The translations under genes were made by a program, and so were the position numbers. A stretch of DNA of 62,026 nt, filler included, from Catajapyx aquilonaris (Eukaryota), in NCBI GenBank assembly GCA_000934665.2. It is 2 parts of 2 records of this genome, joined end to end, with 100 filler letters (N's around TTAATTAATTAA, not from the genome) between each part and the next. Parts side by side here need not be neighbours in the genome. Positions count along the whole stretch, not along the records: positions 31,017 to 62,026 come from JYFJ02004609.1; 1 more part is not named here. One strand, 5' to 3'. Positions 1,614-57,788 of the stretch are shown one piece after another; positions within the stretch are counted from its first letter, which is position 1; each line of letters opens with the position of its first letter. Under the pieces are notes generated by a model. That model was given only the letters and a program-made list of their open reading frames with translations. It ran no database searches and was not told where the DNA came from.

Positions 1614-27751
<26,138 letters not shown>

Positions 27752-33425: not shown

Positions 33426-33435
33426 TCATGAAAGC

Positions 33436-33790: not shown

Positions 33791-33849
33791 AATTAATTGG
33801 CACCAAAAATGTAACAACGATCAATGTGTCATGTGGGACATGCTGTAAA

Positions 33850-35619: not shown

Positions 35620-36060
35620 TGAAAAGCATCGTAAGGGACAGAGTGAGTAGGCCCTATATTAGGGAGAGGATGCGAACATTAGGCAGAATACTGAAAACAT
35701 TAAAGGGTAATGGGTGTCCTCATAGTTCCTTAAGCGCACTCCTTCGGCCGGAATCATTCGATCTCATCGTCCAGTGCGTGAGGCGTCTATGCAAATGGAA
35801 TGACCAGCCTGATGGGAAGAGAGACTCTGGTATTCCTTCTTTGGCCCTCGAAGTTGGCATACACCTGAAGAAATCGTGCCAACATCACGAGGGGTAATGC
35901 GCTTAAAAATCAAGACCCAGCAGCTCAAAGAAGCGCCGAAGGCTATATTCACATCCATGAACTCGAGTGGACGGCAAGGATATTCACAAGCACTTTCTTG
36001 CATGAATCAAAAGAAACAACCCAATCATTCTTCCTAACACGGATGATCTCATGAAAATAA
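35620..36060 (+). pseudogene. Fragment of an animal tyrosine-recombinase-element ORF (Crypton-like, region N-terminal to the YR domain)
   Basis: IRERMRTLGRIL..LLRPESFDLIVQCV..PSLALEVGIHLKK, then frameshifted EW..PIILPNTDDL. Confidence 0.5.
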
Positions 36061-36129
36061 ACGCTCACCTGCAACCCTGATTACAACCCAGGCATAGTGC
36101 AGCAAAAAATAAATAAATAATAAATAAAT

Positions 36130-36294
36130 AAAAAATCCCGCATGGGCCAGGCCCTCCGCCTTAAGAAATGGTACCGACCATGCTTTGAATGTTCGTCTGC
36201 GGGTCTTCTCATTCTTCAACGAGTCGAATGTAATCCACTTTCGATGTGTCTTTGTTGGGCAGTTTGACAACATTGGTGAAGGGGTTGTACTCAT
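36130..36294 (-). pseudogene. IAP N-terminus with truncated BIR domain
   Basis: FDSLKNEKTRRRTFKAWSVPFLKAEGLAHAGFF, cut off by an A-rich retroposon tail. Confidence 0.8.
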
Positions 36295-36727
36295 CCCCCT
36301 GGAGTACCGACTATGTGCAAAGCACCATGTGTACAGCATTTTATAGAAAAGAACCGTGTAATATTGTCAATGTAATGTTGTCGATGAAGCTAATATTAGT
36401 TGAACTAATATACTATGCGAGCCATTTGGTACGATGTAGCGTGCAGGAGTTATAGACAATGACGCAGGCTAATAGACGGAAAAGAAACCCATCTAGACTG
36501 GTCAAGGTCTCTTGGAACGAGAATATCCCGAGCCGAGCCCTTCCCACGTCACTTGGCATAAAAAAAACTTCCCGGCCTTCACCCTTATCACGTCACTTTA
36601 AAAGAAAAAAACTTGGAAATTCCCGAACCGCGCCCTTCCCACGTAACGTGATCATGATATAGCTCCACAGCCTACGCATCATACTGCTGCTTCATAACAC
36701 CACACTCGGCAATTGTTTGTGTGCGCG

Positions 36728-37280
36728 ATGGGACGAACAAAAAGCACAACAGCCAATGAAGACGACAAACAAGAACAAGGTGCAACAGACAAAGGAGAGG
36801 AAGAGAACAGATAAAAATACCACCGACAAGAAGCATCGATACAGGTGAGTGAATATTACTTACATTCAAACGACCATAAACCACTATTCTGTGTGTTTCA
36901 AGAGCTGGCACCGATGCACTCAGGGAAATCCGTCGATACCAAAAATCGACGGAACTTCTGATCCGGAAACTGTCATTCAAGCGGCTTGTCCGCGAAATAA
37001 TCCAGGACATGTCCAACGCGAACCTCCGGATCCAATGCGCTGCGCTTGGAGCCCTGCAGGTATGACGAGCAACCTCGTACCTTAGCTTTGAGACTAATCA
37101 GTGTGGGTGTGTGTGTGGATGTGCTTCCAGAAAGCGGCCGCGTACTATTTGACTGGGCTGTTCGAAGACACAAACTTGAGGTGCATTCATGGTAAGCGCA
37201 CAACAATCAAGCCCAAGGACATTTCCTTGGCCCTGCGCATCCGCGGTAATTTATCTCCCATTAATCTGTATCAGTATTAA
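36728..37280 (+). pseudogene. Divergent H3.3-derived histone, copy A (3 exons: 36728-36844, 36903-37059, 37131-37280)
   Basis: MGRTK(+1 frameshift)[107 protein letters not shown] introns. Confidence 0.9.
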
Positions 37281-37329
37281 AAAGTTTTTATAACCAAATT
37301 ACTCCCAGTAAGCGAACAGCTTGACACTG

Positions 37330-37513
37330 CACTGCACAAACAGGTTGAAGCTAACAGGAAAATCCTTGGTCCAATAGTCAACACAATTGTATTTTGTGGG
37401 ACGCATGACCTGGCTATGAAGGGAAACTCAGTGACTCCGGCGTTTTCAGCGACCTGCTTGCATTCAGAGCTGAAAGTGGTGACTCTGACCTGCAAAACCA
37501 CTTACAGTCTGGG
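37330..37513 (+). pseudogene. hAT (DUF4371, ZMYM/PRKRIR-like) transposase fragment
   Basis: QVEANRKILGPIVNTIVFCG..LAMKG..SGVFSDLLAFRAESGDSDLQNHL. Confidence 0.8.
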
Positions 37514-37580
37514 ATTTATACTGTTTTTTCTCCCACAGACAGAAAGAAGATCCTGAATGAGAATGTGGAATTCAAGAAAA

Positions 37581-37790
37581 CATGTCCAGTAGCGAAACGT
37601 CTACGAGCATGCGAATACCCAGCCTACGAGATATACAAGGGGGATTGGCATGTAGTGGTAAAGAAGGGGGGGACAGATAACCTCCCTTTCATCCACATTC
37701 GTCAGTTTCCTGGGAAAAATTTGAAGCTCGCGGGGTATCAGGGGTGGGGTTTTTTATATATAAAATGCTCCCGACCATGTTAGAGGCCTT
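37581..37790 (+). pseudogene. PC4/Sub1-like gene fragment, copy 1
   Basis: YPAYEIYKGDWHVVVKKGGTDNLPFIHIRQF, then a frameshifted GGVF..KMLP; resembles PC4 IDIREY..KGISL. Confidence 0.5.
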
Positions 37791-38493
37791 GCAAGAAACT
37801 TACGATCAGATGCGATGTGCAAGGGTGGTTTTTGAATAATGAGACGAATATTGTTTCTCGATCCCTTTATTTTGATTGTAACATGCATTTGGCGCTTAAT
37901 GTCCCTTTTCTATTTGGTCTAATAAATATTCAATTGATTCTGACATGTCCTGCTTATTATTCATTCCACGAAGTAGGAGTCCAAGGCTTAACATTTGGTT
38001 ACAAACGACCATTGTTTTCATCTGGCTGCGGTCTGACTAACGGTCGCGGTATTGTTAATGTTGATGAAGCATCCCGAGATGCTGTTCTTGATGAATGCTA
38101 GGGTGGTATCAGCCCTAGATACGGCCTTATTCACGGATACGTCACACTTGATTTTTGCACTATTTCTAGTAGGGGTGGGTTCATATTTGCTGTGGAAGTT
38201 GATTAGCAATTGCAGAGCAAAGCGACACAAGCGAACCCCAAGACAGACACCGGACGCAGAGGCCATGACGACTGAGGAGGGTCAAACGATATTCCCCCAG
38301 TGTGACAGGAACACCCAGAAGGCCGGAGTGAGCGTAAAGGCCGCTTCACAAACTCGGCGTGGCTAAGGCAGGGCGTGTGGAGCGCGAAAAACTTGCGAGG
38401 GTCAAAGCACAAATGTTGCGTGCGGCGGCCGAGGGAAAGCGTGGCGCTAGCGGACTTTCTGCGTGTGAGTAGCGAGCGAAGTAGCAGGGCAAG

Positions 38494-38640
38494 ATGGCGG
38501 CCGCCATGTGTACGAAGCGAAAGCTCCTGAAGGCCGAAGAGAATGAGCGGATCATTGCTCTGGTATGCTCCAATGAGGCACTCTGGAACGTAAAGCTGAG
38601 TGCATACAAGGACATCCACCTGCAAAACTCCCTGTGGGAG
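38494..38640 (+). pseudogene. MADF (Myb/SANT) domain fragment, Harbinger ORF2-like
   Basis: ERIIALVCSNEALWNVKLSAYKDIHLQNSLWE. Confidence 0.8.
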
Positions 38641-40478
38641 GATAAAGGTGATCCACGAAGATCCGAGGGCAATTCGGCAGGGCGTTACAACTGGTCAACG
38701 TAAGCCTCCCGTTATACGAGACCGACAGCCGCCTACGACTCACATTAGAGTCAAGAGAGACGGATTCACATAAGGGACAGGTACCCAGACCCGTCTTGGA
38801 TAACAACCGGCGAGTATAACGCTTTGTTGATAATTGGAATTCCTTAACCATGTTTTGTCCCAGCGATATGGAGGTACCCTTTCCTTCCTATAGACTCTGA
38901 GCTCGCAGTTTTCTGGGGTCCTTTCCTAAAGAGGAGAAACTATGTCGCAAGTAGCATATTATAGAGGGGTATATAAATGACCTTATAGCGTTTTATCAAT
39001 GACAAATATAAGATTATTGGTTATGCAAATATTTTGTAATAAATAATATTCATAATTCCCAGTGCCACAATTGTAAGCGCGTGCGAGCAGTCAAAAACCG
39101 TGTTCTTTTGGAAATACCCTGCGTGGAGATGCAGGAAGGTATGGAGTGAACGACATGCCATGAAGAGGCTGAATAAATGTCGCTACTGGTGTTTGAAATA
39201 AAAAAGAACCACAAACGTCCGTAACTGAGAACGGGGTCTGCAGTAACCAGTCCAGCGTAATGTAATATAGCCAGGGTAGTGATACTTATAAGGTGTAGGT
39301 AACATTTAACCACCTAAATAACAACAATTGACACAGGCCGCGAGCTTGGAAATATTTATAAACTCTGGAATTCATTCGTCCAATAATGGAGTCATGATAA
39401 TTTTATGCCTCAGCCCTCAGTTGTATTGCAATTTCAAAGAACTGTAGTGCAAAGATTGTCAAGTAATTATGAAAAGTAAGCTTAATATGGTACCTCTCTT
39501 TCATGGTCAAGAACTTCAGGAATGACGTGTTCCCAATGGCTCCATCAAAGGGAGCAAAGCAAGGACTCTTGGCAATAGCCAAGGTGGAGCGGCTACATAA
39601 TGAAGAACCATGCATGCACAATCCCGATCCCTTGACCATTTCCATATCGTCACTTCAGGATCCCCTGACTGTTGAGAATTATTTGACATCCCCTGAGCTT
39701 ACCGAGACCGTTCAGGATTCTTTGACATGGCCTGAGCTTACAGACACTTTTTTTTTTTTGTAACCCTACCTCACTATAACGCTGTACCCTTGTCCAACTG
39801 TGTCACAAATACCATAGGTAAAAAATATGTATTACAAAGTGTAACAGTGAGTGGATATCCCCCTATATGAGCCCATGGCTCGAAGCACGGGGCGGATAAA
39901 TAAATAAAATAGATAAATAGTTGAAGCTGTCCCCTGTCGTGCTATAAAACGGAAAAAAAACCCAAGAAAGATACAACGAAGAAGCTGAGGACATCAGGGC
40001 AGGCATACACCAGGGACTCAGGTCATATCACACGACGTACTCTGATAAGACCGAGCGAGTGCGTCAAAAAGCCTTTTTAGTCATACGTGTGTCACAGGAA
40101 AACGTGTTCAGCGCTTACAGCAGTTACTGAAGGGGGAGGTGTCATCCAAGTCAGTGAATTCACGGATGGTGGTGTGCAGTATGAATTCAAGCTTGCCAAC
40201 AAACCAAGATGACTGTACAGGCGTGAAAATAAATGCCAAAAAAATGCAAGACATAGGCAAACTCGTGCAATACATTCAATCAGAGCACCCCTAAACCAGA
40301 TGGCTTCACGCACCAACATATCAGAGGTTTTATTACTTAGCTAGCATTCTACACAGCTCACACTGCATTGGTTCATTGCATTCGGAAATCATCTCTAAAC
40401 CATCTCTCAAGCTGGAAAGCTTCGTAAGTAACTACATAGTTTCCTGTCAACAATCTCTCTTTATTCATAGACTCTACT

Positions 40479-40817
40479 ATGGATATTTTTAATCGTCTTT
40501 TCGGTGATGAATTGGTAAACCTGTTCAACGAGAAAGTCATGTTTGGGTGGAGGTGGGAGTGTGTAGACCTTGAAATGTTGGACAATGATGAAGCAGTTGT
40601 TTATTGGTACCTGGTTCCGGATGACGTAATTGTGGGCCTATTCGATGATCAAGATTGTGGGATAGAATTTATTAACTTATTTAACGAAAAACCAGTTCAA
40701 AATTATTATACAGATTATTTTCCCGATAGAAATGGTTATTATACTTGCCAATATTCTTATATAGATAAATGCGACAGTGATGACGATGCATCATGTCGGG
40801 TATATAAACGTGGATAA
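40479..40817 (+). CDS. Orphan acidic 112-aa ORF, virus-like
   Basis: Intact ATG to TAA with an internal NLFNEK repeat; no recognisable family. Confidence 0.4.
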   Translation: MDIFNRLFGDELVNLFNEKVMFGWRWECVDLEMLDNDEAVVYWYLVPDDVIVGLFDDQDCGIEFINLFNEKPVQNYYTDYFPDRNGYYTCQYSYIDKCDSDDDASCRVYKRG

Positions 40818-41829
40818 TTAATTCCAACCATTAATTCATGAATTCCCCTCATTTCCACTTTTATATCTTCCTACCCACACCTTGCTTCCACTTAGTCTTG
40901 AGACATGGCTATACACGTTGCACTATTCGTTGGTGTTAAGCCACATAACTGTTTGAAATTACAAAAAACCGAAAAGGTGGTTAGTCTATGGAGGAATGAT
41001 TACGAGGTGTTGGAAGATCCTGGATTAATCCCGCACCAGCCATTGCACATACAGCTACTTTACGTGTGATTGTAAGGCGAAGAAAAAAAATCAATGGGAT
41101 ATTAATAAGGGTATATCTTGGTATACCCACCCCGATTGTCGTGAAGAACATGAAGATGTCATTCGTCCTGGTATGGTGAGTCTATCATCACTAGTATTGC
41201 GCGACTATTATTAAAACATTTTCTTAGTACACCAAAATGAATCTTTGCGCCAGACTCTTTCAAATGGAAAAAGAACTTTGTCAGTTGGAGGGTGGATCAC
41301 ATGACCTTCGGGAACAGGTTCCTACAATGATCCGGATGACGAAAGAGGGTTGGTAGTCGGGACGAAGACTGGTAGACCTGGTTCATCAACTACGTGCTGC
41401 TAAGGGATTGTCTGAGAATATGACGCAACATCGGGATTTATTCAAGGGCATGAAAGATATACCTTGAAAAGATGTATTGTGAAACACTCCTTTATACCTC
41501 TCCCATCTACCTCTTCACAACTTCCATCTTCTGTTCCAGTCACCAATAATGAACCTTATTTTCCCTACCCTACCGAAACTCTACTTTTGGACATATTTGA
41601 TGTGTAGACTATGTCAGTCTTATCAATAAAATAAGATAAGAAATGTTTTATTTGATATTCCTTATAGATGGAGAAGATCTGTGACAAGTTTATTGATCGC
41701 ATTAAGACTCTTCAATGGTTAAAAAAGATAAACGCACATCGATGGACTCAAGCCAGCATTCTCTTCCGAGAAAGAGAAGATAGATGGTCAATTGAATTAT
41801 GTAGCACGGAGTTCGTAATGTTTTTTCCC

Positions 41830-42762
41830 GAAATTCAGTGTGCTACGGACTGGGGTAGGTTCAAGGAACTAATCCTGGAGAGGTTTAATCCTACTCGTGG
41901 GTTCTCTGATTTGATTGGTGATGTAAAGGGGTTCAGGCAAGAAGTAGGCCAAAGCGCAAATGAGTTTGCCACGACCCTGCGTAAGTTACAGCTGGACTTA
42001 CTTTCTTGTGCTGATGCGCCGCGTGACAGGGAGACAGTGGAGTTACTGATTTTGTCTCAATTTGTTTCGGGGTTGAGTTCAGAAAAAACAAGGCACTCCA
42101 TTCAGATTTTGAAACCTAAACGGTTATCCGAGGCGCTTCGGATTGCGCTGGAATAGGAGGTGCAGGAAAAGAGTGGGTTGATAGGGTCCAAGCAGAGAAG
42201 TAGGACATTGTTGTGTAGCGAGGATGGGGAAGTGGATGTAGTAGGTCAGCTGACTGAAAAAGTAGGGATGCTCACGAAGCAACTAGAAAGGTATCAGTTG
42301 GAGGCCAACAGGAAGTGGGAAGAAGCCAAACAGGCGGTGGCGACTCCTCCTCAAGCTGGGAGTGAGGTAAAGCAAGGCGGTGTTAGACCAAAAGCTAACA
42401 GGAGTAAGCCACGCTGTTATAGGTGTAATTCGGAACAGCACTTACTGCCTCAGTGTCCGCAGATGCCAAGGAAAGCATCAGGCGCCTGTTTTAGGTGTGG
42501 GAGTATGGAGCACTTAATCAATAGGTGCCCAATGAAAATACAGGTCAGGGAGCCACCCTCGCCCTGTCCTATTTGTAGGGGGAATCATTGGAAAATTCAC
42601 TGCCCTCAGAATAAGCAGAGGGGTTATGCAATTCCGGCACCAGGTAGGCAGGTGTACTCTGGTGGGTTGCCAGGAAGTATGAGCGAAATGAGCAATGTGA
42701 CAGCCCAAAGTAGGGGGGAGAATTACTGGTACGAGTTATGTGCCTCAAATCCGTTACCATAA
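41830..42762 (+). pseudogene. LTR-retrotransposon gag fragment with three CCHC knuckles
   Basis: WGRFKELILERF..RQEVGQSANEFATTLR..QFVSGL; CYRCNSEQHLLPQC, CFRCGSMEHLINRC, CPICRGNHWKIHC; in-frame TAG at 42154. Confidence 0.9.
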
Positions 42763-43074
42763 GGGAGAAGGACCTCAGGGTAGTGGGCATTGTCCTCCTG
42801 GACATGAGTTAGCATTGGTGTCTAGACCGGGAAATGGGGAGAGCCCTCCTTTTTCCACCGGAGAATAAAGGAGAATAGGGCCAAGATACCGGGCAATCAA
42901 ACGGAAGACACGAATCAATACCCCTAAGACTCCATCACCACAAGTTTCTCCAATTTTAAGTAGGTCCAACCAGATGCCGGTGAAGGTTCCTTGGTATGTG
43001 TATGTACAACCTCCTTCTATGGTGCAGAAGCCATGTGAAAATAGGGAGCATAGGGGCGATATATCGGCTTATAG

Positions 43075-43205
43075 GATGTCCAGTGGCGAAACGTCTACGA
43101 GCATTCGAATACCCAGCCTACGAGATATACAAGGGGGATTGGCATGTAGTGGTAAAGAAGGGGGGGACAGATAACCTCCCTTTCATCCACATTCGTAAGT
43201 TTCCT
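43075..43205 (+). pseudogene. PC4-like fragment, copy 2
   Basis: Near-identical to 37581-37710. Confidence 0.5.
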
Positions 43206-43490
43206 TTAGCTGCCGCCCTGCAGAAAGACTTAAAAGAAGTCAACCAATTTCGCGCCTCGAAATGTAATGACATCGTGGCCTCATTCATCACCGAGGGATT
43301 AAGTTTCCCACTGAATCCGGATGAAGGTGGGGTGAAATTCGAGAAGGCGAACAAGATAAGTGTAAACGTTTATGATCATGATGGCAGCTTGAATGTAGAC
43401 CCAATTCGAACAACCACAGTACATGCACCGCGACATGTGGATCTCCTCTTCCTGTGTCAAGGGGAGGAGCTAGAAGAGGGTCTCACCTAA
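43206..43490 (+). pseudogene. Polinton/Maverick protein-primed polB N-terminal fragment
   Basis: GLSFPL..KFEKANKISVNVY..PIRTT..HVDLLFL. Confidence 0.75.
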
Positions 43491-43854
43491 CAACCTTGCC
43501 AGATCATTTTGGATCCACAACACAGAATGGTTGGCCTGAAGTGGAGTGAGTATTAGTCCTGACATGACTCCCCGTTGTCTCCCCCAGAGTATACTGACTT
43601 GTCTATTTTGTTCGGCCCCAAATAAAAATGCTAGATGCTAGAAACTGAGTATTGTGTCTGACTTCTGACCTCTCCCTTACTTGACCGACTCGACTTGATT
43701 CCGGCATCGTTGGATTTGCCGCCAAATTGGCGACAATCGAACAATATAATACACTAGGGGTAACACCTGACAGACCATATGTAGACATAGATGGGGAAGG
43801 TATTTTCTTCATGTATGATCCCCCCACTTACTAAAAAGCCTCGGAACAACCCTA

Positions 43855-44770
43855 AGGCTCATTATCTACAGTGGGATGGGCACCTTGTTAGGTGGAGCTA
43901 TGCAGCGAGTGTTTGTGGCCAACAACTTCAACAATGGCTGAGGCTCATCCCAAAAATTACACGTCGCCACATTGGATTAGTACCATTTAAGAAAATAAAG
44001 GCGAAGTTTGCATCTCAGGTTCTTAGCTATTCAACGGCAGCAGCATTACAAAATTATGTGGTGGGAGTTACTTCCGCCTGAGGCTAGGCATACTGCAGAT
44101 CGGCTGCAATTGGTGGACAAGTTGTTCGATACTTTTAACAGCAGTCGCAGGTGGGATGGGCTTAGCCAGCTAAGTGTACACTAACTGAGAATTCCATTCA
44201 CCTTGCATTTTGGGAGGAGACATTGGTGTCACTGAGTAATTGTAGGTTCGATGCTGTTCGACAGCCTGACTGCTTGTTGGGCTGGCAACTCTCAATACGA
44301 GCTGTAATTATGACGTGGAATGAGATACGTGGCCGTCTTGACACTCAGTATCTCTGCACACGACAGCTCAATCAAGATAGCTTGGAGAGAACATTCGGAG
44401 TGATCAGGGGGGGTGAAATGGTTGCAATGATCATCACCCAACTCCTTCACAATTTTTTTTTCTGCATTAAGACAAGTGTTCACCAAGTCCTTTCTTAAAC
44501 CCTCTGACATGGGTAATAGTGAAACAGACGAACGAGATATTCCAGCTGACCTTAGTTCTGTCATGCAGAGTAAGGAAGCCACAGCTCAGGATGTAGGGTC
44601 AAGGGATGGGCGAAATGTAACAATGTATCCTAAGATCTCTATTGATGATTTTCATGTCCCTGCACAAAATGCGTTATACCATGTCGCTGGATATATTTGC
44701 AAGAAATTGTTGAGGGCTCATGATTGCTTGTTGTGTCAGCACATCATGCTTAAAAAAGATTTAAGATAGA
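43855..44770 (+). pseudogene. P-element/THAP9-like transposase fragment
   Basis: LRLIPKITRRHI..FKKIKAKFASQVLS; DKLFDTFNS; GWQLSI..YLCTRQLNQDSLERTFGVIR; YHVAGYICKKL..CLLC. Confidence 0.9.
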
Positions 44771-46667: not shown

Positions 46668-47202
46668 TGTAACATTTTGGTAGTCTTGCGAAACATTTTT
46701 ACATAACACGTTGTGCAACTTTGATATTGTTTTTATACGTCATCTTATGATGCAAAGGTACCCTTCAATTTGACCGTAGCGTCGTTAAATTCGAAATGCG
46801 TCATATGATGTAGAGCAACACATGACGTATTTCAGCACATTAAAACTAATCGAGTTAGAATCAGTAGTGTCAGGTGTCCCAATGTACGTCAATAGGCATC
46901 TGCGTGCGTCATTGAACACCGTCATAACGTAGTTAACACGTGGAGGTTAAGTATAAAAGACCAAGTTTGGGCAGTCTTAGGGCAGAGAAGGGCCAGAGCA
47001 CACAAGCTATATACTCAGCACTCGACGACATTCTCCCTCTACGGACATCAGAATACAGTAAGTGGTTCACCTTTCATTCACAGTGTAATTGGATGGGAGT
47101 TGTAATCCTTTTTGAGCCAATGTGTTAAAGAAACTTCTTTCAATAAATACAGTTTGTTTCTCTTACTGGTGCACAAGTTCTATTTTCTCACTTTGCTCCA
47201 CA
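46668..47202 (+). mobile_element. LTR-like segment
   Basis: TGTAACA start, TATAAAA near 46952, AATAAA near 47142, possible CA end; no TSD. Confidence 0.35.
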
Positions 47203-47264
47203 GAAAACTATAAGTCGACTGTTCCTACCTCTAAATAAATAATGTCGATGACAGTGGCGCAGCG

Positions 47265-47335
47265 GTAGGATAAAGAAGGGGGGCAAGGATAACCTCCCTT
47301 TCATACACATCCGAAAGTATGCTGAGATTGGCAGT
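47265..47335 (+). pseudogene. PC4-like fragment, copy 3
   Basis: IKKGGKDNLPFIHIRKY. Confidence 0.5.
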
Positions 47336-49859
47336 GTGCAGAAAGATCCCATTGGGGATTGGGACCTAGACCGGCGCAAACGGTGCATGTAAGAGAGCCC
47401 GCCTCGGGGCCTGTTCATTGGTCATTTGGACCCCTCCCCTAGCATCATTCGTCCCATCCCCCGGCAGCCTCCCGCCTTTGCCGCCATGACTACGTTCCTT
47501 TATGAGTCTATGAGCGTCACGGACAGAGCCTTTTACATCGGCCACCACCCCTTTAAATCCAGCGTCCCCCGACCTCGTGTACTTGATCATGTAGAGGACT
47601 TAAGTGACGTCAGGGTGCACTTCTGTGCCACTCTGGGCGCCAGATTTAATTTTGACCGGCTGGCGGGAGGTGCCATGGGGCCAGCAGACATTCAGGCGGT
47701 CCCAATTATTAACCAGGGACTGACTAGTGTGGGTACTAATATTATAGACGTATATAAGGGGGCTTACCCGGCATAGCCATCTGCAGCCCCCGGCTCCATC
47801 AACATCTAATCACCGAAAAGTGACAACATCATAAACAAACAAGAAGAGCCAAACAAACCTGGATAAACCCGAAAACCGAAACTATGATCTCTTGCTCCTG
47901 GAAGTCAAGTGCTGTCTTGGATTCGCCAGACAGCACTCCCCTAAAATGTTTTTCCCGTCGGCGTGGGAAACAACTGAACGTTGTGAGGCGTGTCTGGCGC
48001 ATACTATCGTGCTACCATTTGCAGGAAGAATCTATTATCAAGCCCTGTCGAGTAGCGATGAGATTGATTCCGAAGCTAGCACAGAGCTGGCTTTCGATCC
48101 GACGCCTACCGGAGATGACTCCGGCTGTTTGTCCCCCACCCCCTCTGAGGAATCGGACGAATCAGAAGATTGAACCTATCTCCGGGAATCCCTGACACGT
48201 GTCATGCCGCCTACGGCATAACAAGAAAATTAAACATACTTTAATTACGATATTAATTAGCGTCCGACATACACTTGAATATCATAAATTATGTCTGTTT
48301 ATTAAAACCAGGGAAAGGCAGCAAGAAATCTGTAGACTTCCTGGCGCCGGAAAGCCATTCAAAAGAGCCATTCGAGTCCGAGCGCGGAGATAGGTACAAG
48401 AAGTACACCGCATCAATGTAACAAGTCCGTCTCTAGGATGGAGGGGTTATGTCGATATTACAGGAAAAACCTCGAAAAGGGTACTCACGTGGTGTAAACC
48501 CCACCCAGAAAACGGACACTACAAAAGCAGGTCCGGTTTGTAGAATCAAGCAGTAAGTAAGTAAGCAGTAAGTAAGTAAGCAGTAAGCAGAGAGTCTTCC
48601 AGAGAATCGTTGCCGAGACTGTACAGATTCAACTCTGACAGGTAAGCCAGCCATGTGGCAAAATTTCCAGTTGCAATTATTTTTCTTCTCATGCAACCAC
48701 AGATTGAGAAGGTGTATTATGCATGAGTAAGGTGTACAGAGAATGTAAGTGTCACAGTAGTTATTCACTTATGTATATTGTAGTGAAGAGGTTAGAACTT
48801 TAGAATCTATTGTTGAGGTTAAAATATATACAGCATGTCAAAGAGAAGGATAAGTCGAATTGTAAACTATTCATGAAAGTGTATTGTGTGTGTAATAGCG
48901 AGCGGTAACGCTCTGATAAAACAAAGAGCCTGAATTGGCTAAATTAAACATGTTATTTGAAACCATTCCCTGAATACATTTTATTCCCGCTGATATCCGA
49001 CACATATATTTCTACTTAACTTATATTCGAACCCCGTACCTTCCATAATACCATAATATATTTCCATGCCCAGATGTTTGATTAGGATTGATGATTTGAT
49101 GTGGCTGTGGTGTAAAATTATACTGCAAATTCAGCAGATGTCATATCCCACTAGTCATTCCAGAACTGATTTACTAATCAGAATCGAAGTCATTGTCACC
49201 GTCAAGAAGACTTCAACGACCTGATCACTCGGTCAGCTTCAGCTGATTTGAGGTACTTGCACAGTTTCAGAACATCTGTCAATTTTGCAGACTTGACTGG
49301 AATGAATTACTTGTACAATGCTTCCGTAGGAAATGAGAGACATGTTGCTTTCCTCTGTCCAACATATGACTGGCACAGAGCACCAGACATAGTTTGTGAT
49401 ACCCTGACCTGAAACTTGTGCACCTTTGAGTATTCCAGAATCTTGCATTTGAAATCAGAAGCAGTGACGGACCGCGTAAAAATCGGCGCAAAATGCCCTT
49501 TGAAATCATGACCATTCATGATAATGACATCAAACTTTGCCCCAACCAACATTTTGGACAAATGACTATCGCCATGTACCAGGCCACTGAGAATGAAAGC
49601 AACCATACTCCCAAAAAAACAAGTTATTTGTGATCATTTTTTTTGTTGAGTTATGCACGTTTTAATTCTGGGTGCTTCGATTGTAGTCGTCTTGTTTCAT
49701 CCGCCCTTAACTTCCCACAGTTTGCCTGCTGTTACCATGGAGCCTCCACGTGTCTCTCCACGTACCAGCTCGTCCAAACGCGACAAGGTAAAATAATCCC
49801 ATCACCTGCAAGCACGGAGTCTCTCTGGCATGGTTAAGACTATAGGTAATGTATCGTCA

Positions 49860-49985
49860 GGATGTTACAAGCATTTACTGCTGCACCTTAGCATTGCAAC
49901 CGTCACATGTCCAAATTGCGGGCAGAGTTATAAAGACTTTAGTTCAAGGTTGGGGCATATTCAGCGCATCCTTCGCAAATTAAAG
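49860..49985 (+). pseudogene. C2H2 zinc-finger fragment
   Basis: YKHLLLH..VTCPNCGQSYKDFSSRLGHIQR. Confidence 0.5.
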
Positions 49986-51689
49986 AATGCTTGGAACGGA
50001 TGGGATTAGGCTCACTGATGAATACCGCCATGTTGGGTAGGTTACTCAAAACACGGAACCAATTGTAAAATATGGACCTCCTCTGTCAGAGTTACGGCGA
50101 CCCGACCATAAAGGCCCCGCGCCAATGTATCTCATCATCCACAATTATTCAAAGGCTAATCAAGAACAAGAATTTACATTTACTGTCCTCACAAAAGGAA
50201 CTCCAATCAAACGATTAATAGAATTTACGTTAGAGAAATTACATTTATATTTTAAAATGAAGCTGAGCCAAATAAGATCTGAAAAGCTGATAGTTCACAA
50301 CAGTTTAATTTTAATGTACATTTAATGCAAGTTTTCGGTAAATTTATGCAAATTTTAAGATTTTCTAAAAGCAAAAAACAAGTATGGAAGGGAAAATGGG
50401 GGGAGGGGGAAGCAATGCCCTGAATGCTCAAGGACCCAACTCTACTGCAGCACTCCCATACGCATCCCCCAGGCCCTAGCCCAGTGTCCCGCCCCGAAGC
50501 TAGGCATTTATGTCCGACAGCACTGCGTCCGCCCGTAGACAAAAGGTGGACCTCCTGTGAAGGATCCACAATTAATACATGCCAGTTTTGTCCAAGTCCC
50601 TGCATGGGAATGGTCAGAACAGCAGGAAGCGGATCAGTTAAATTGTTGGGGATAAGGAACCAGTGTGGATAAATTACACAGCATACGATTCACAAGCTAC
50701 ATCGGAATTAATTACAATGCTTAAAGCATCCCCTCAAGGTATAGAAGCCATACGCGTCAAAGATCGAAGCCGTATAAGGGGAAATCCGAGAGATGTCCTC
50801 TTGTAGGGTGTGCTTGCTCCCTCAGTAGATACATACATAGGCCATCCCACATAACCAGTCACCTGAACGTGAATTGTATGTATTGTCCGGTCTGCTCCAG
50901 ATCACTGTACAGTATCATTGCATGGGTAAACCATATGTTGTATTCACATAAAGAAAAAAATGAAGGTAATACTGAACAGAACAGGATATGCACATATGCT
51001 ACGGTATGATGCAACCCGAGTGAATTAATCATGTGAGAGGAATTTGGACGTGATGACTATTTTTTTTAAACTACTTCTATTTTTAGCACACTATATGGTA
51101 ACTATTGCATTGTTTTTATTATTCTTCAATTTAAAATGAAGATTTAATGTTGTATCAATCTCTTATCAATGTAAGTGTCTTGTATTTCGATGTGCAGTTG
51201 AAAATCTTGTCTCGTGTGAGTGGATATTGTCATGGTTGATATTGCGAGCTTGGACTTCTTGGAGTAATTATTTATGATAATATTAATAGTATGTATAATA
51301 CAGGCATAATAAGAGTACAATGCGATCGCAGCTCTATATTCACAGGCTCACCGGCGCCAATAAAGCCATTAACTTGCTTCTGACACTGCAAACCATTGCC
51401 TGCGCTTACAGCAGCAAAACGTGTCAGCGTAATCAATGTCATAGTTAGAAGTGTCTTATATAGATTCCACAGAATGCTTAGCAAGAGTCAGGTTATCCCT
51501 ACAAAATACTATAAAAGGACCACAAAGGGTTCAGCAGAAGACCGAGATGGGCAGCCCACCAGCCAGAGATGTAAGAAATAATTTTCAACCGCATTAAGTG
51601 ACTTTGGAGGGGAACCCTTTAATTAGTCGTAACCTCCGACACTTTAATGTAAGCTGCAACATGACGCAGCGACGTCCGCATATGGAGGG

Positions 51690-52080
51690 GCCATGTAAAA
51701 TATTCGTGTATAATAAACAAGCATTCATTGACTCTGTCATTGACATCCTGATGTCTCCCTGCCCCACGCATATTACCTTCCAACTTATATTCGGACCCGT
51801 ACCTGCTTAGGTCCGACACTTCCACCCCATTGACATTACACGCAAACTTATCGAAATGGAACAGAACGAACGAGTTTTCAGGTGTAATCTTATCCTCATC
51901 TGAATACTTGGAATTGTCGTTGCCCTTCACGATATCACTCTTAAAATGGACTGGCTCAGGTAAAAGTAACCATCCATTTTCGTCATTCTATGAATTACGT
52001 CACTTCTATGGGAATTGATGTCACCCGCTTCGGGTGCAAATATGTAGTCCAGCATTTTGAAGTAGTCCATTCCGGTCATG
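51690..52080 (-). pseudogene. Polinton-type major capsid protein N-terminal fragment (frameshifted)
   Basis: YFYLSQSILRV/DIVKGNDNSKYSDEDKITPENSFVLFHFDKFACNVNGVEV resembles my recollection of Polinton capsid N-termini. Confidence 0.55.
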
Positions 52081-52167
52081 GCGTTCAGGACGGATTGGCC
52101 TTGTGTGTCACCATGTTTGATTGCTCAAATGTGTAAGCGAAAAGTAATAGGGTCACTGGGATCATGT

Positions 52168-52512
52168 CGATACCAAAAGTCGACGGAACTCCCAATCAAG
52201 AAACTACCATTCCAACGACTAGTACGAGAGATCCTGCAGGATTTGGAGACTAACCTCCGGGTCCAATGTGGGGCACTTGGAGCCCTGCAGGTATGACAAG
52301 CAACCAATCACCTTAGCTTTGAGACTAATATGATATGTAACGTGTGCATTTGTATGTATGTATGACGCTTCCAGGAAGCGACGGAGGCGTACCTAGTTGG
52401 TATCTTTGAAGATACCTACCTCTGTTGTATCCATGCAAAAAGCACAACAATCATGCCCAAGGACATATCCTTGGCTCTCCGCATCCGCGGTGACTTATGT
52501 CTGAGTGTCTGA
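52168..52512 (+). pseudogene. H3.3-derived histone, copy C (5'-truncated; intron 52291-52374)
   Basis: [81 protein letters not shown]. Confidence 0.9.
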
Positions 52513-52539
52513 TGGAGAAGGAGGGTGACTGTCAAAAAC

Positions 52540-52895
52540 ATGAGTCTCCCTGGTCTCACCTACGATACGGCTTTGCGCATGACTGGTATCTCCATCTCCC
52601 TCTTCACAGACGTCGAAATGTATAAATTTGTTGAGAAGGGTGTCAGAGAAGGATGCGCTTACGTGGGATTGAGGCATTCAGTCGTCAACAACGAGTACAT
52701 AACTGACCCTAACGCCCCCTCCACCTACACTGTCTATTATGGCATGAATAACCTTTATGGATACAGCATGTCCTGGCATGTGCCCATGGGAGGGGTCCAT
52801 CACTCTGGAACCGATCCCCCAGCTCCTGACACATTATATTGGAGACGCCAGAAAACGACGAGTATGGGTACATCCTGGAAGTTGACCTGAAATAT
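52540..52895 (+). pseudogene. Polinton/Maverick polB polymerase-domain fragment
   Basis: SLPGLTYDTALRMTG..LFTDVEMYKFVEKGVREG..NNEY..YYGMNNLYGYSMS..P.GG, then frameshifted GYILEVDLKY. Confidence 0.9.
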
Positions 52896-52909
52896 GCTCG
52901 AGAACTCCA

Positions 52910-53097
52910 TGATTCCCAATAGGAGTACAAGTGACAACCTCTTTATACTAAATGCCCTGGTACAGCACAGGCTGCGGAGGAAGAGTGGGAAAATGTACGC
53001 GATGTTCGTGGATCTTAAATCCACATTCGACAAAGTGGATCGCGTGAAACTTATGACAAAACTGTGGAACATAGGAGAAAAGGGGAAAGTGTGGAGA
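52910..53097 (+). pseudogene. Non-LTR (LINE) reverse transcriptase fragment
   Basis: PNRSTSDNLFIL..MYAMFVDLKSTFDKVDR..LMTKL. Confidence 0.88.
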
Positions 53098-53179
53098 CAC
53101 TCACTCACTTCACCTCAGCAGTTACCCGAGTACAAAGACGCATGGCATGTGCAGATGACATTCCATCCTCAAAGAGGCC

Positions 53180-54098
53180 CATTTACCCTGCGGAGGAAGA
53201 CGAGATGGGGCTGCAAGTAAATGTGCCGTTGTATTGGCCAAAAAATCTCGACGTGTCCAGCTCGAGATACGGCCTCGAGAATTGCAACAACCGAGAGACG
53301 TCTTGTGGCTGCAAATCACATATCAATTCAACTTTGTTGTTGTAAAATGCCTGGATACTGGGAAGTGTAGCATCGGGCTTCATGAAGAGGTCAAAGGGAG
53401 ACCGTCTGGGGCTCTCGCAGTGGTCACCCTGGGATGGTGCCGCTCAGTCGTTCTCACATCAGCAGATGGGCGAAAATTACAATTGGAACATTTGCGAATT
53501 AAAACAGGATTTGGCCACTGCATACCAGTTAAACCACCCACCCCCCAGTAAATGGTTCATCGGGGTTCCCCAAGATGGCTTTGAAAGCAAAAAGCACAAA
53601 TGTCAGACACTCGTTGGTCAGCACGTGCTGATGCTAGTGAAGCCCACGTATATGGATACAACTGTATTCAAAATACCCTCAGAGATATTGAGTGAGTGAC
53701 TTGGAGCAAACACCTGAAGCAAAATATGAAGCTCAGTCATTGGCAGACAAAATGGATTGTCTTGAAACTGCTCTGGAGGCGAAGGTCTGGAACTTAATTC
53801 TGGTGCAGTTCAACAACCAAGTAAGCTTTTCAAGGAGTTGAAGTTGACCTGAAGAAAGTGGTTGATCTCACTGATTCTCTAGAAAAAGCTTCTGGAGTCA
53901 CTGAGGGATAGACATGACTAGTTGGAAATAGATGCCAGTAACTTTTGTGGCAACACAGACCACAAAGCAACTACAGGCAGGTCAAGAAAGAGAAATCAAT
54001 GCTTTGATATGAATCCCACATCAGTCCCAGGAAATTGCCCTGTCTTCCAGAGAAACATTCAGATGGGGAACATTTTCATTTTAGATAAGTTGTCAGCG
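53180..54098 (+). repeat. Composite block duplicated at 55228-56133; includes a hAT transposase fragment (about 53695-54098)
   Basis: Near-identical sequence from catttaccctgc to tgtcagcggc; hAT-like EAQSLADKM..WNLILVQFN. Confidence 0.9.
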
Positions 54099-54741
54099 GC
54101 GGTTCCCATTGTCCTTTTTGACCGTCCCGTTATTTATTTTGTGCGTGCAGATGGAACCAGTGATGAAGAACATCCCCGTACGATTGTATTTGATTTCGAA
54201 GGGTGGGTTGTATCTCCGGTGGGAGGTGTGTGACCTTCCTGAATGACTCTCTCGTCACTGGCCCATTCCATCACCCTTTATTTTTGAGTTGGTTTTGCCT
54301 CCCCCATTTACCAATGTGAGATGCGCCGTTGCATTGGCGAGGTAGACCTATTTTTCCACCGCTGTATATACCGTTAGCTGCAAAGGTCTGTTAACCATCA
54401 TGCAACCTGTTTAATACGTCAATCCTGCTTCACCTTCTTTAGTAACCATAATGCATTGTTCTCACCCTACTATTTAACCAACCGCCCACGTATGCTCCAG
54501 GCCAGTTCCCCGGGAGCATATCCCGGGGGCTGGTCGTTACTCCCGACCTATCACTCTTCACCCATTTCACCTATCCCTTCCTGACTTTTGTTTGTAACGC
54601 ACGTTTCAAGGCAGAATAAACCAAAGTACAATGGACCCACTAGTTTTGATATGTTTCACCTGCTTCGGTGACAACTTCACAGTCTATACGCATCATATTG
54701 CTGCTTCATAACACCACACTCGACAACTGTATGTGTGTGCG

Positions 54742-55231
54742 ATGGGCGCACAAAAGCACAGCAGCCATTGAAGAGGAGAAAGAATAAGAACAAGGTGCAA
54801 CAGAAACAGAACCGGGCGCAACACCCAAAGGAGAGAAAGAGGACAGACAAAAAGAGTACTGACAAGAAGCAGCGATATAGGTAAGTGAATATTACTTACA
54901 TTCAAACTACCATAAAACACTACTCCTTGTATTTCAAGACCTGGCACTGTTGCACTCACAGTCAGAGAAATCCGTAGATACCAAAAGTCGACGGAGCTTC
55001 AGATCCGGAAACTAGCCTTCCAGCAGCGGCTTGTCCGTGAGATAATGCAAAACATTTCCAGCGTAAACCTCCGCATTCAATGCTCTGGGCTGGGAGCCCT
55101 GCAGGTATGACGAGTAACCTTGCACCTTAGCTTTGAGACTAATCAGATGTATGCGTGTGGGTGCGCGCTTCCAGGAAGCGGCCGAGTCCTATTTGGTTGG
55201 GCTCTTTGAGGATACAAACTTGTGCTGCATT
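54742..55231 (+). pseudogene. H3.3-derived histone, copy B (exons 54742-54880, 54939-55104, 55175-55231; 3'-truncated)
   Basis: MG(-1 frameshift)[96 protein letters not shown]. Confidence 0.9.
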
Positions 55232-56235
55232 TACCCTGCTGAGGAGGAAGAGATGGGGCTGCAAGTAAATGTGCCGTTGTATTGGCCAAAAAATCTCGAC
55301 GTGTCCAGCTCGAGATATGGCCTCGAGAATTGCAACAACCGAGAGACGTCTTGTGGCTGCAAATCACATATCAATTCAACTTTGTTGTTGTAAAATGCCT
55401 GGATACTGGGAAGTGTAGCATCGGACTTCATGAAGAGGTCAAAGGGAGACCGTCTGGGGCTCTCGCAGTGGTCACCCTGGGATGGTGCCGCTCAGTCGTT
55501 CTCACATCAGCAGATGGGCGAAAATTACAATTGGAACATTTGCGAATTAAAACAGGATTTGGCCACTGCATACTAGTTAAACCACCCACCCCCCAGTAAA
55601 TGGTTCATCGGGGTTCCCCAAGATGGCTTTGAAAGCAAAAAGACCAAATGTCAGACACTCGTTGGTCAGCACGTGCTGATGCTAGTGAAGCTCTCGTAGC
55701 CTATATGGATACAACTGTATTCAAAATGCCCTCATAGACATTGAGAGTGAGTGACTTGGAGCAAACACCTGAAGCAAGATATGAAGATCAGACATTGTCA
55801 GACAAAATGGATTGTCTTGAAACTGCTCTGGGGGCGAAGGTCTGGAACTTAATTCTGTTGCAGTTCAACAACCAAGTCAAGATTTTCAAGGAGTTGAAGT
55901 TGACCTGAAGAAAGTGGTTGATCTCATTGATTCTCTAGAAATGTTTCTGGAGTCACTTAGGGATAGATATGACTATAGATGCCAGTAACTTTTGTGGCAA
56001 CACAGACCCCAGAGCAACTACAGGCAGGTCAAGAAAGAGAAATCAATGCTTTGATATGAATCCCACATCAGTCTGTCTTTCAGAGAGAAATTCAGATGGG
56101 GAACATTTTCATCTTAGATAATTTGTCAGCGGCTTTAAAAGAACGAAGGGTAGCATACCAATCAGTGTATGACAGGTTCAATGTCATAGTCAACTTATCC
56201 AGTCTACCTCATGCAGAGATGAGGACTGAAGCTGA
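55228..56235 (+). repeat. Second copy of the composite block, continuing further into the hAT transposase
   Basis: ILDNLSAALKERRVAYQSVYDRF. Confidence 0.85.
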
Positions 56236-56479
56236 GGCAGCTGCAGACCCCCGGACAATGCACATTAGATGTCCAAAAAGGTCTGCTAGGAATGTACATT
56301 ATCGCATTTGAATGAACTGAACACCTCGCTGCAAGGGAAGAATAAAACTGCCGGAGCTTTTCGAGGTTGTGAAGAATTTTGCAGCTCCACTCGTCGTATG
56401 GCACGTAGACATATCTGATGGACGCCTGCATGTCCCTATCCTCACCAGTGTGACTTCAAGCGACGAATTAATCGACTAC

Positions 56480-56825
56480 GGACCTTTCGCAGAATTCTTG
56501 TCGCACTTGGAGAAGGAGTTCCGCAATAGGTTTACAGACTCTTTTGTCAGTTTTTCTTTTTTTCACAATGCATAACCCCTTCTCTGCAGAAGAGCACTCA
56601 CAGTCTGCGTGGAGTCCTTGACCATGGCAGGTTGCAACTGGAGACCTGCAAGCACTACTTCAAAACGGAAATCAAGTCGGACCGGACTTTTGATGCAAGT
56701 TCGACAACCAACGGTTTCCGAACCTTCGAAAGGTGGGAATTCAGGTGTACTCCATGTATGGGTCAACATATATTGTTCCGAGAGTGAGTTTTCAAAGACG
56801 AACTTCATAAAAAATAAGTACGCTC
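56480..56825 (+). pseudogene. hAT C-terminal dimerisation-domain fragment (SPIN/GTF2IRD2-like)
   Basis: FLSHLEKEFRNRF..PNLRK..SMYGSTYCSESEFSKTNFIKNKY (frameshifted). Confidence 0.75.
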
Positions 56826-57344
56826 TGAAGCAATCTGTTGCAAGAACACCTGGAAGCCTACCTGCAAATTGCGCAACTTCGTACATTCCAGAATTTGCGT
56901 AGTTGACTCTCCTAATGGGTAGATGCGAGAAGTAGCACGAATGGGACTCCGACATATGGAGCAGGAGGAGAGGGCTGGTGCACATCGCCCAAAGGTTCAT
57001 CAAGACACCCTGCAATTGGTTGCGTCCTCATCCTTGACCTCATGTGAAAGGATACAGTTGGTGTAATCTTAGACTATAATATCAAAGGGAGATGGTAAAC
57101 CCTCCTGCCAATGATGATCTTCAGTATTTTATCTGGGGTTGGGATCATTATTGCATCAGTCACTTGCAAGCTTTCTGAGGTCAACCCCAACAGAAGAGGA
57201 AGCCGCCACTTGCCAAAGCGACGCCGATGAAGAAGATGGCGCGTACATGAAATTTGGACAAACCAGTAAGCTTTCCTTGATTCGTGGGAAAATGGTCCCT
57301 GGATTTACACTTGTTTTTACACATAAAGAATATTCTCAACGAGG

Positions 57345-57565
57345 ATGTCTTTTGAGGTGTGCAAAGCGGCAGCGCACCTGAAGGCTGCGGATTACCCGGC
57401 CTATGAGATTTACCAGGGTGGCTGGCACTTGCAGGTGAAGAAATGAGGGGAGATGCTGTTTGTACACATCAGGATGTATCAGACACAAAACCTGAAGGAA
57501 AAAGGGGGAAAGGGTGGTGTATTTTTCTACAAAATGCTCCCAGCGATTATAGAAGCCCTTCATCC
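57345..57565 (+). pseudogene. PC4-like fragment, copy 4 (diverged)
   Basis: [56 protein letters not shown]. Confidence 0.5.
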
Positions 57566-57629
57566 AGCATTGCTCATGCTAGACTTTCAACACTTCCAAT
57601 CATCCTACCCCATTCAGCCAAACTGCATA

Positions 57630-57788
57630 GTCCAGTCTGCAGCCGTTGGAGCAATCCAGGAGGCAGCAGAGTCATACCTGGTTGCCATATTTGAAGACAT
57701 TAACATGTGCAGCAGCATCCATGCCAAGAGGAAAACCATCACCCCCAAAAATATGATGTTGGCTTGCCGCATTCGTGGTGACACCTGA
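57630..57788 (+). pseudogene. H3.3-like C-terminal fragment, copy D (no intron at Q|E)
   Basis: [51 protein letters not shown]. Confidence 0.88.

Follow-up and report, generated by a model that had tools for sequence, protein, structure and literature searches.

Histones carried by viruses are known from the giant viruses of amoebae and, in the form of H4, from bracoviruses; to our knowledge there is none in the Polinton/Maverick-like virus group. Transposon fragments can also collect on one strand in piRNA clusters, of which flamenco in Drosophila is an example. The locus described here lies in a 62,026-nucleotide stretch of Catajapyx aquilonaris DNA (the window), and an earlier note had interpreted it as pieces of a histone-carrying Polinton/Maverick-like virus. 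A unit copied several times was indeed recovered, but nothing was found that ties this unit to such a virus.

Our tentative best reading, held at slightly less than an even chance, is that of a locally duplicated and now decayed two-gene cassette, consisting of an H3 variant and a small ORF, inside same-strand transposon debris. Taken as a whole, and at the same level of confidence, this reading places the cassette in genuine intergenic DNA that is present in a single copy and follows a TTC21-type host gene on its downstream side. Between a host cassette and cargo of a polB-bearing element the evidence is not decisive.

Histone H3 copies and their introns

Pfam matched the Histone family on five ORF pieces (E 5e-13 to 4e-9), and four loci were placed in the window by tblastn, at 36729-37280, 52166-52515, 54675-55231 and 57645-57788, which bears out the earlier report of H3 copies; those named A, C and D are the copies at 36.7, 52.2 and 57.6 kb, and B is presumably that at 54.7 kb. 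No further H3 or small-ORF copies were found by tblastn elsewhere in the 62 kb window. The best 60 of the 171 sequences matched in the PDB were all H3, with H3.3 chains at the top (E 3e-17 to 1e-16) and H3.1 and H3.2 ranking behind, and the copies are H3.3-type.

The most complete copy is that at 36.7 kb (36663-37280, + strand; detected by Pfam, tblastn and the PDB search), in which exon 1 extends to 36845 and is followed by an intron (36846-36902), exon 2 (36903-37059), a second intron (37060-37130) and exon 3 (37131-37280). Its first ATG, at 36729, and the remainder of exon 1 are in different frames; the spliced frame is open from an in-frame ATG at 36763, and this copy may be readable from the second ATG even now. 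The 52.2 kb copy (52166-52515, + strand) is cut at its 5' side inside exon 2 and has intron 2 and exon 3. The 54.7 kb copy (54675-55231, + strand), whose first ATG is also out of frame, retains exons 1 and 2 with both introns and continues into the start of exon 3, where it is cut by a LINE-like copy. Only the final ~50 codons are present at 57.6 kb (57645-57788, + strand; Pfam and tblastn), in frame with a small ORF copy and with one stop in 57345-57785. The 5' part is thus missing from the 52.2 and 57.6 kb copies, and an intact frame from the first ATG was found in none of the four.

The histone had been described as intron-containing, which holds for three of the four copies, with GT..AG borders, but not for the 57.6 kb copy, which lacks intron 2 and is intron-less. 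In addition to both introns, 66 bases of 5' flank are common to H3 copies. The introns are positioned after the R42 codon (a split codon) and between Q93 and E94, which we take to be the intron sites of vertebrate H3.3. A histone stem-loop is absent, with no Rfam family reaching threshold anywhere in the window.

The small ORF and selection on both families

Four copies of a second gene, an ORF of ~90-100 codons, are present on the + strand. Copy 1 (37512-37800) has one frameshift near 37740, copy 2 is at 43076-43245, copy 3 (47255-47347) is a fragment of ~30 codons, and copy 4 (57301-57640), which starts at the ATG at 57345, has one in-frame TGA. These had been called PC4-like, with copy 1 keeping its number here; the four copies do form one ORF family, whereas the PC4 name found no backing in Pfam, the PDB or the predicted fold. 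At E<=10 the small ORF had no Pfam match of any kind, PC4 (PF02229) included. One copy had no PDB matches, and PC4 was not among the two profile matches, the top one being the RIG-I C-terminal domain (E 0.39, not significant). The fold prediction (pLDDT 43.3) is too poor to compare with the PC4 fold. A PC4/Sub1 identity was not confirmed by the Pfam and PDB searches. Positions 43076-43205 of copy 2 are 97.7% identical to 37582-37711 of copy 1 and the flanks are far more diverged, suggesting that this 130-base near-identical tract arose by a gene-conversion-like event.

Both families diverged under purifying selection. For H3, dN/dS was 0.11-0.23 when the three intron-bearing copies were compared exon by exon (five pairs) and 0.09 between the 52.2 and 57.6 kb copies; saturation of synonymous sites prevented its calculation for 36.7 versus 57.6 kb. 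H3 differences at codon positions 1/2/3 were 7/8/25, 19/12/38, 11/9/22 and 9/7/23, concentrated at the third position, and small ORF copies 1 and 4 differ by 26/17/46 over 71 codons. These data show that the histone functioned at one time as a spliced gene and did not begin as a dead copy. This pattern is not peculiar to a host cassette, as selection is equally expected if both genes rode an active, repeatedly inserting mobile element, and purifying selection among copies that are now dead is usual for genes of active mobile lineages. The member at 57 kb is the most divergent copy in the H3 family and also in the small-ORF family.

Junctions, transposon debris and adjacencies

Contigs of two sequencing runs (X1 and X2) bridge the odd junctions with 0 differences and cover 36212-37641, 41535-43135 (in X2 to 42869) and 51708-53231. 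Their depth is 21.7-22.1 in X1 and 28.6-33.9 in X2, similar to other long contigs of the stretch, with the reservation, from the tool's own warning, that contig depth is not copy count. An identical 245-base contig over 36815-37059 is present in a run from a different sample and study. The junctions are real.

All 11 Pfam-matched ORFs (E<=0.001) between 31.7 and 57.8 kb are on the + strand; they comprise YqaJ, an LTR-type integrase, a kinase piece, a gag knuckle, a P-type transposase, RVT and the five histone pieces. The integrase is a C-terminal domain of LTR-retrotransposon type (32237-32782, + strand) and the sole integrase match in the window. Between the 36.7 kb H3 and small ORF copy 1 lies a short fragment (37281-37510, + strand) that presumably resembles hAT/DUF4371-type transposases, with Pfam giving just a single zinc-finger match at chance level (E 0.05-0.07). 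Retrotransposon debris at 41668-42762 (+ strand) consists of gag-like ORFs that contain a zinc knuckle (zf-CCHC, E 1.7e-5; 25.1 bits, cut-off 20.8), and P-element/THAP9-type transposase fragments are found at 43791-44769 (+ strand; TNP-like_GBD, E 5.3e-8, and a weak TNP-like_RNaseH_C, E 0.09). The first of two LINE-like copies (52910-54100, + strand) is 5'-truncated and has a reverse-transcriptase part, with RVT_1 at E 1.8e-5 and 25 bits, under the 29.6 cut-off, and a 3' part; depth at 52.9-53.1 kb is multi-copy. The second (55228-56133, + strand) is 93% identical to 53180-54100, agrees with the first in its 3' end but not in its 5' cut, and is the one that interrupts the 54.7 kb H3, with 4 bases in common at the junction.

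This one-strand array of short internal fragments from many element classes is what would be expected of a piRNA-cluster-type trap, in which H3 and the small ORF arrived repeatedly by a route other than a Polinton, whether with an unknown DNA element or as RNA-mediated copies. The intron-less H3 fused to a small ORF, in a locus that contains LINE copies, also suits such a trap. However, three of the four H3 copies retain introns and must therefore have been copied at the DNA level, carrier termini did not turn up, and the uniform strand may have other causes, given that the adjacent host gene shares the + strand. We regard a trap of this kind as quite unlikely.

The same set of genes had been said to lie repeatedly side by side. 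This applies to H3 and the small ORF, for two of the four copies of each (36.7-37.8 kb and 57.3-57.8 kb, always on the + strand), and to no other pairing: the H3-polB, ORF-polB, capsid-H3 and BIR-H3 adjacencies occur once each. Even the two units differ, with an unrelated fragment between the genes at 36.7 kb and the reversed order at 57 kb, and partners change at nearly every junction, all of which could be read as two independent local families whose adjacencies are due to chance in a deletion-prone junkyard. Against this, the four copies of each family share one interval of 21 kb and one strand, both families were under past selection, and the 57 kb member is the outlier in both. Two adjacencies within 300 bases also exceed chance expectation (by rough arithmetic, ~1 in 5 per copy). 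Chance is on balance an unlikely explanation.

The polB-like, capsid-like and BIR-like pieces

A probable internal fragment of a protein-primed polB (52530-52910, + strand, one frameshift) begins ~15 bases past the end of the 52.2 kb H3 homology and stops at the LINE. A language model gave it a lead of 0.97 to a cluster in which 28% of members have DNA_pol_B_2, recognition being below the tool's bar, and a further lead to a cluster named DNA-directed DNA polymerase; no match to DNA_pol_B_2 or any other Pfam family (E<=10), to the PDB or to homologues exceeded chance level, and the polB assignment draws on the language-model lead and on none of these searches. Another piece (43250-43487, + strand), in the same ORF as small ORF copy 2, presumably resembles the N-terminal region of animal protein-primed polB genes; Pfam and homologue searches with it gave no matches. 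The proposed PC4-like/polB fusion can be seen in this one ORF copy, but the DNA after the other three has no significant likeness to the tail (45 to 274 of 300 shuffles reached the observed score in each of nine frame comparisons).

The capsid-like piece consists of two overlapping frames at 51622-52124 (- strand), and its assignment likewise has a language-model lead (0.96, to a cluster with Capsid_N in 17% of members) that phmmer and fold comparison did not support. Among 1.84 billion representatives phmmer found two matches, both repetitive bacterial proteins; the predicted fold (pLDDT 55.5) had no BFVD match at E<=0.001, and there was no likeness to the NCLDV capsid. The reported BIR gene is reduced to the first half of a domain (~36130-36240) in an ORF at 36052-36366 (- strand) which runs into an AT-rich simple repeat. 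Four of five among the matches listed were IAP chains at E ~1, with only the first ~30 residues aligning; Pfam gave no BIR match, a complete domain with zinc ligands is not present, and the downstream minus-strand ORFs showed nothing of the zinc-binding second half. The polB-like, capsid-like and BIR-like pieces number one or two each, are truncated internal fragments (of 90-130 codons for polB and capsid), and have unrelated pieces as neighbours, namely LINE, P-element-type transposase, gag and the hAT-like fragment.

No Polinton hallmark family was found among the 120 and 141 ORFs scanned with Pfam, which were of at least 62 aa, a limit that shorter remnants would escape. An rve-type integrase was absent from the 120 ORFs at 35-59 kb, and neither a packaging ATPase nor an adenain-type protease was matched among ORFs of this size. 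Repeat pairs within 35.5-58.5 kb were direct in 12 of 12 cases, with none inverted, and terminal inverted repeats with a target-site duplication around a 15-25 kb unit were not found.

That the H3.3-derived histone and the small ORF are cargo of a Polinton/Maverick-like virus lineage, of which several diverged members inserted and decayed, is very doubtful. It would account for the polB-like fragment directly after the 52.2 kb H3, for the polB-like piece following ORF copy 2 in one ORF, for the lead from the capsid-like piece to capsid-bearing virus clusters, for the selection seen among dead copies, and for the one-strand order H3, ORF, polB, which suits three of the four junctions. However, the polB, capsid and BIR adjacencies are single, the polB and capsid identities lack Pfam, HMMER, PDB or fold support, and the Polinton-type integrase, ATPase, protease and inverted repeats are missing. 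ORF-polB continuity fails in three of four ORF copies, and at least four same-family insertions in 21 kb on one strand require a special trap or target preference. The near-unique depth of the junction contigs and of the H3/polB bins counts against it as weak evidence, and the literature, as far as it was accessible, describes no histone in a Polinton, Maverick or adintovirus. The fuller version, in which a polB virus lineage of the arthropod carried a spliced H3.3-derived histone and a small DNA-binding-like ORF, both kept by selection, and the locus acted as a one-strand trap in which several of its diverged members were caught, is marginally less probable still.

Under the preferred cassette reading, an H3.3-derived variant that was spliced, had a rewritten N-terminal tail and had no histone stem-loop would have been paired with the small ORF of ~90-100 codons, and the pair would have been duplicated locally in direct orientation, presumably not by a mobile carrier. 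Selection would have maintained both genes while the copies diverged; these would later have lost their function when they were truncated, fell out of frame, took up a LINE or suffered deletions, and the polB, capsid-like, BIR, gag, P-element and LINE pieces would be unrelated debris brought alongside by insertions and deletions. This reading has its own difficulties. H3 and ORF copies touch same-strand polB-like pieces, and the order H3, ORF, polB could come from internal deletions of one element. There is no flanking homology between the supposed units beyond the genes, and a tandem array is therefore not directly shown. No copy in the stretch is intact, and the intron-less 57.6 kb H3 requires an extra event; its fusion to the small ORF probably arose via spliced RNA or recombination.

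Comparison with known systems

If it is a host feature, the cassette would be one more birth-and-death case of a lineage-specific H3.3-derived variant, with a tail that lacks the usual modification sites and a small gene as partner, and of modest interest for arthropod chromatin evolution. Were a virus-like element with polB the carrier, the histone would be the first known to us from that virus group. The locus resembles Polintons, Mavericks and adintoviruses in its polB-like fragments, of which there are one or two, and in a single possible capsid-like one, and differs from them in that the stretch has no contiguous element, Polinton-type integrase, ATPase, protease or TIRs; histone, BIR and PC4 genes are all absent from those listed in the main text of the adintovirus paper. 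Eukaryote-like H3 does occur in viruses, as can be seen from the six IMG/VR loci matched by the H3 exon, five of which are contigs labelled as giant-virus MAGs and the sixth of which (L005) encodes H3 beside VLTF3, PCNA and an NCLDV capsid. In contrast, over the exon the copies here share 65-73% identity with giant-virus H3, to which they are no more similar than to cellular H3, and none of the gene set of large nucleocytoplasmic viruses is in the window.

As in flamenco, many short fragments of varied transposon classes are on one strand, whereas the strand bias here extends to the histone copies and the nearby host gene. The small ORF has a predicted order of three strands followed by a helix, which may be compatible with PC4/Sub1 at the low confidence of the model (pLDDT 43). 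Compared with H3.3, every H3 copy here is damaged or doubtful; the N-terminal tail is rewritten and without the usual lysine-9 and lysine-27 motifs, one additional residue is present in the loop before helix 2, and the terminal residues past RIRG are changed. Like animal H3.3 genes, the copies retain H3.3-type residues before the second intron, and in having no 3' stem-loop they resemble the replication-independent, polyadenylated type.

Histone H3 copies and the neighbouring small ORF

Histone H3 sequence is present at four loci, 36663-37280, 52166-52515, 54675-55231 and 57645-57788 (the 36.7, 52.2, 54.7 and 57.6 kb copies), and tblastn within the window placed none elsewhere in the 62 kb; five ORF pieces matched Pfam Histone, with E-values from 5e-13 to 4e-9. 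In the 36.7 kb copy two introns with GT..AG borders, 57 and 71 bases long, separate three exons; the 52.2 and 54.7 kb copies share these introns and the 57.6 kb copy lacks them. The intron-containing H3 of the earlier note is confirmed in three of the four copies. The intron sites lie after the R42 codon and between Q93 and E94, positions that are also the intron sites of vertebrate H3.3 genes; H3.3 chains were also the top solved-structure matches, and a search for the histone stem-loop did not find one. The N-terminal tail is strongly rewritten, yet alike in the 36.7 and 54.7 kb copies. No copy is free of damage or doubt: two have their first ATG out of frame, the 36.7 kb copy remains open when translation is taken from a second ATG, the 52.2 kb copy is cut within exon 2, exon 3 of the 54.7 kb copy is cut by a LINE-like copy, and the 57.6 kb copy consists of the last ~50 codons only. 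A 35-base motif occurs twice (36521-36555 and 36616-36650, 83% identical) in a promoter-like position just upstream of the 36.7 kb H3.

The pieces which the earlier note called PC4-like are indeed four copies of one small ORF, all on the + strand (copies 1 to 4: 37512-37800, 43076-43245, 47255-47347 and 57301-57640). Copies 1 and 4 have ~85 codons in common, from just upstream of the ATG to a C-terminal helix-like stretch, and copy 3 is a 30-codon remnant. A 130-base tract of copy 2 is 97.7% identical to copy 1 while its flanks are far more diverged, a pattern that is read as probable gene conversion. The PC4 name found no support in Pfam (E<=10), phmmer against PDB, a PDB profile search or the predicted fold (pLDDT 43.3), and the top profile match, the RIG-I C-terminal domain, was not significant (E 0.39). 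An IMG/VR scan with this ORF gave no confirmed match, and the one locus returned by a metagenome scan with the ORF alignment was taken for the transporter gene of a high-GC bacterium, with which the ORF has a short motif in common, and rejected as spurious.

Only H3 and the small ORF recur as neighbours. In the unit at 36.7-37.8 kb the ORF comes after H3; in the unit at 57.3-57.8 kb it comes first and leads directly into the intron-less end of H3, the two sharing one frame that is interrupted by a single stop. The proposal that one set of genes lies repeatedly side by side therefore holds for this pair, seen twice, but not for polB, capsid and BIR, each seen once. We tentatively favour a local two-gene cassette of an H3 variant and the small ORF, which would be consistent with one locus, direct orientation and the absence of copies elsewhere in the window. 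That the two adjacencies reflect chance encounters of two local families is considered fairly unlikely.

Continuity and identity of the polB-like, capsid-like and BIR pieces

Contigs of two sequencing runs of one sample (X1 and X2) match 36212-37641, 41535-43135 (X2: to 42869) and 51708-53231 with 0 differences, and the last of these (51708-53231) bridges all of the capsid-like, H3, polB-like and reverse-transcriptase junctions. Their depth, 21.7-22.1 (X1) and 28.6-33.9 (X2), equals that of other long contigs of the stretch. The assembly may itself have been built from these runs, and the depth of a contig does not count copies, so that they speak to presence and continuity only. A 245-base contig that spans exon 2 of the 36.7 kb H3 copy, identical to the window there, was present in a run of a different sample and study. 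The pieces described earlier are thus real.

For the polB-like piece (52530-52910, +) a language model gave a match of 0.97 to clusters in which 28% of members carry DNA_pol_B_2 or which bear the name DNA-directed DNA polymerase, and the second frame of the piece presumably continues the likeness to such genes; Pfam, PDB, homologue and IMG/VR searches returned nothing usable for it. For the capsid-like piece (51622-52124, -) the language-model lead was 0.96, with Capsid_N in 17% of members and a second cluster belonging to Preplasmiviricota. Two matches from phmmer over 1.84 billion representatives were rejected, both being repetitive bacterial proteins, and the predicted fold (pLDDT 55.5) had no match in BFVD at E<=0.001. 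Homologue searches confined to longer proteins gave 0 matches each for the capsid-like piece, the polB fragment and the ORF copy 2-polB ORF, and no capsid or polB query was confirmed against IMG/VR. The BIR piece (in the ORF at 36052-36366, -) covers half of the domain, at E about 1. What stands of these three attributions is the presence of the pieces and the language-model leads for polB and capsid; for these two, Pfam, PDB and fold comparison gave no support.

The piece after ORF copy 2 (43250-43487, +) may be polB-like. Its likeness to what follows copies 1, 3 and 4 is not significant, as 45-274 of 300 shuffles reach the observed score in each of nine frame comparisons, and the idea of the small ORF as the native 5' end of polB was rejected as unsupported in this test. 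One ORF does run through the fusion proposed earlier, but because its tail is not like those after the other copies the fusion is a one-off junction.

A histone-carrying Polinton/Maverick-like virus, as the earlier note had it, appears improbable. In favour of a mobile carrier are the polB-like pieces, which adjoin two of the H3 copies and one copy of the ORF in a consistent order; in favour of the local cassette are the single sightings and weak identity of polB, capsid and BIR, the junction contigs at unique-contig depth, and the lack of Polinton hallmarks.

Selection on the two genes and their transposon-rich setting

Differences between H3 copies fall by codon position as 7/8/25, 19/12/38, 11/9/22 and 9/7/23, evenness being rejected for the first two counts (p<0.001, own arithmetic), and those of the small ORF as 26/17/46 over 71 codons. 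H3 dN/dS was 0.11-0.23 for five exon-by-exon pairs of the three intron-bearing copies and 0.09 for the 52.2 and 57.6 kb copies; synonymous sites were saturated between the 36.7 and 57.6 kb copies. From these counts both genes worked through most of their divergence, and neutral dead-on-arrival duplication of H3, raised by an exon identity (0.72-0.84) no higher than that of the introns (0.80-0.88), was rejected. The two short introns (36846-36902, 37060-37130 and their 54.7 and 52.2 kb counterparts) seem constrained themselves, since from copy to copy they keep 80-88% identity, against differences at 36-66% of synonymous sites. A host gene family undergoing birth and death and genes carried by active mobile lineages would account equally well for the pattern of selection.

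The window, which is animal DNA, carries at 1600-27450 (+) the exons of a TTC21/IFT139-type host gene, whose Pfam ARM_TT21 domains succeed one another in order on that strand; an intron of this gene holds a Mos1-type HTH fragment (4988-5425, -). The H3 and ORF finding sits in transposon-rich DNA downstream of this gene. Two 44-N runs, given as assembly gaps, lie within 30917-31016, upstream of the finding, and single N letters at 9491, 27494, 34377 and 35022. The stretch 31776-33885 (+) begins with an ORF of 174 codons that encodes a YqaJ-like viral recombinase domain (E 9.4e-5); after it come an integrase C-terminal domain of the LTR-retrotransposon type and part of a protein kinase, likewise on the + strand. 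Other debris includes a gag zinc knuckle, a P-element-type transposase, a short and possibly hAT-like piece that separates the first H3 copy from ORF copy 1 and for which Pfam gave no convincing match, and the 3' part of a LINE-like element in two copies (93% identical, ending alike at 3' but cut at different points at 5'), one sharing 4 bases with H3 at their junction. Separately, 49440-50773 is a very abundant repeat, with a summed contig depth of 1560-4080 in run X1 and 2420-10160 in run X2 where unique contigs have ~22 and ~33. An inverted repeat whose arms, ~1.1 kb long, are 82% identical occupies 60201-61725 and is possibly a foldback-type element.

The pieces abut directly, as internal gene fragments rather than whole genes with spacers; all 12 of 12 repeat pairs of the region are direct, and of the ORFs from 31.7 to 57.8 kb with a Pfam match at E<=0.001, 11 of 11 are on the + strand. 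The region 31700-57800 may be a one-strand transposon trap. A carrier other than a Polinton, or such a trap, seems unlikely as the source of the H3 and ORF copies. This one-strand junkyard, the selection among dead copies and the one RNA-like, intron-less copy would speak for a mobile carrier; the single locus and its direct orientation would suit the local cassette, which we continue to prefer.

Comparison with virus-borne histones

In full-text searches and in passages from the adintovirus paper and a viral-histone mining preprint, no histone of a Polinton, Maverick or adintovirus was found; one preprint match in the histone search concerned H3 antibody use only. By title, none of the papers listed by a search for crustacean H3 variants dealt with arthropods. 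An IMG/VR scan with the H3 exon gave six loci, five of which carry giant-virus MAG names. One contig (L005), a giant-virus contig, has at 2639-3043 and 11016-12548 a gene for a complete H3 (Pfam Histone, E 4e-43) in the company of VLTF3, PCNA and an NCLDV major capsid protein; its histone is a giant-virus histone, unrelated to the H3 locus of Catajapyx aquilonaris.
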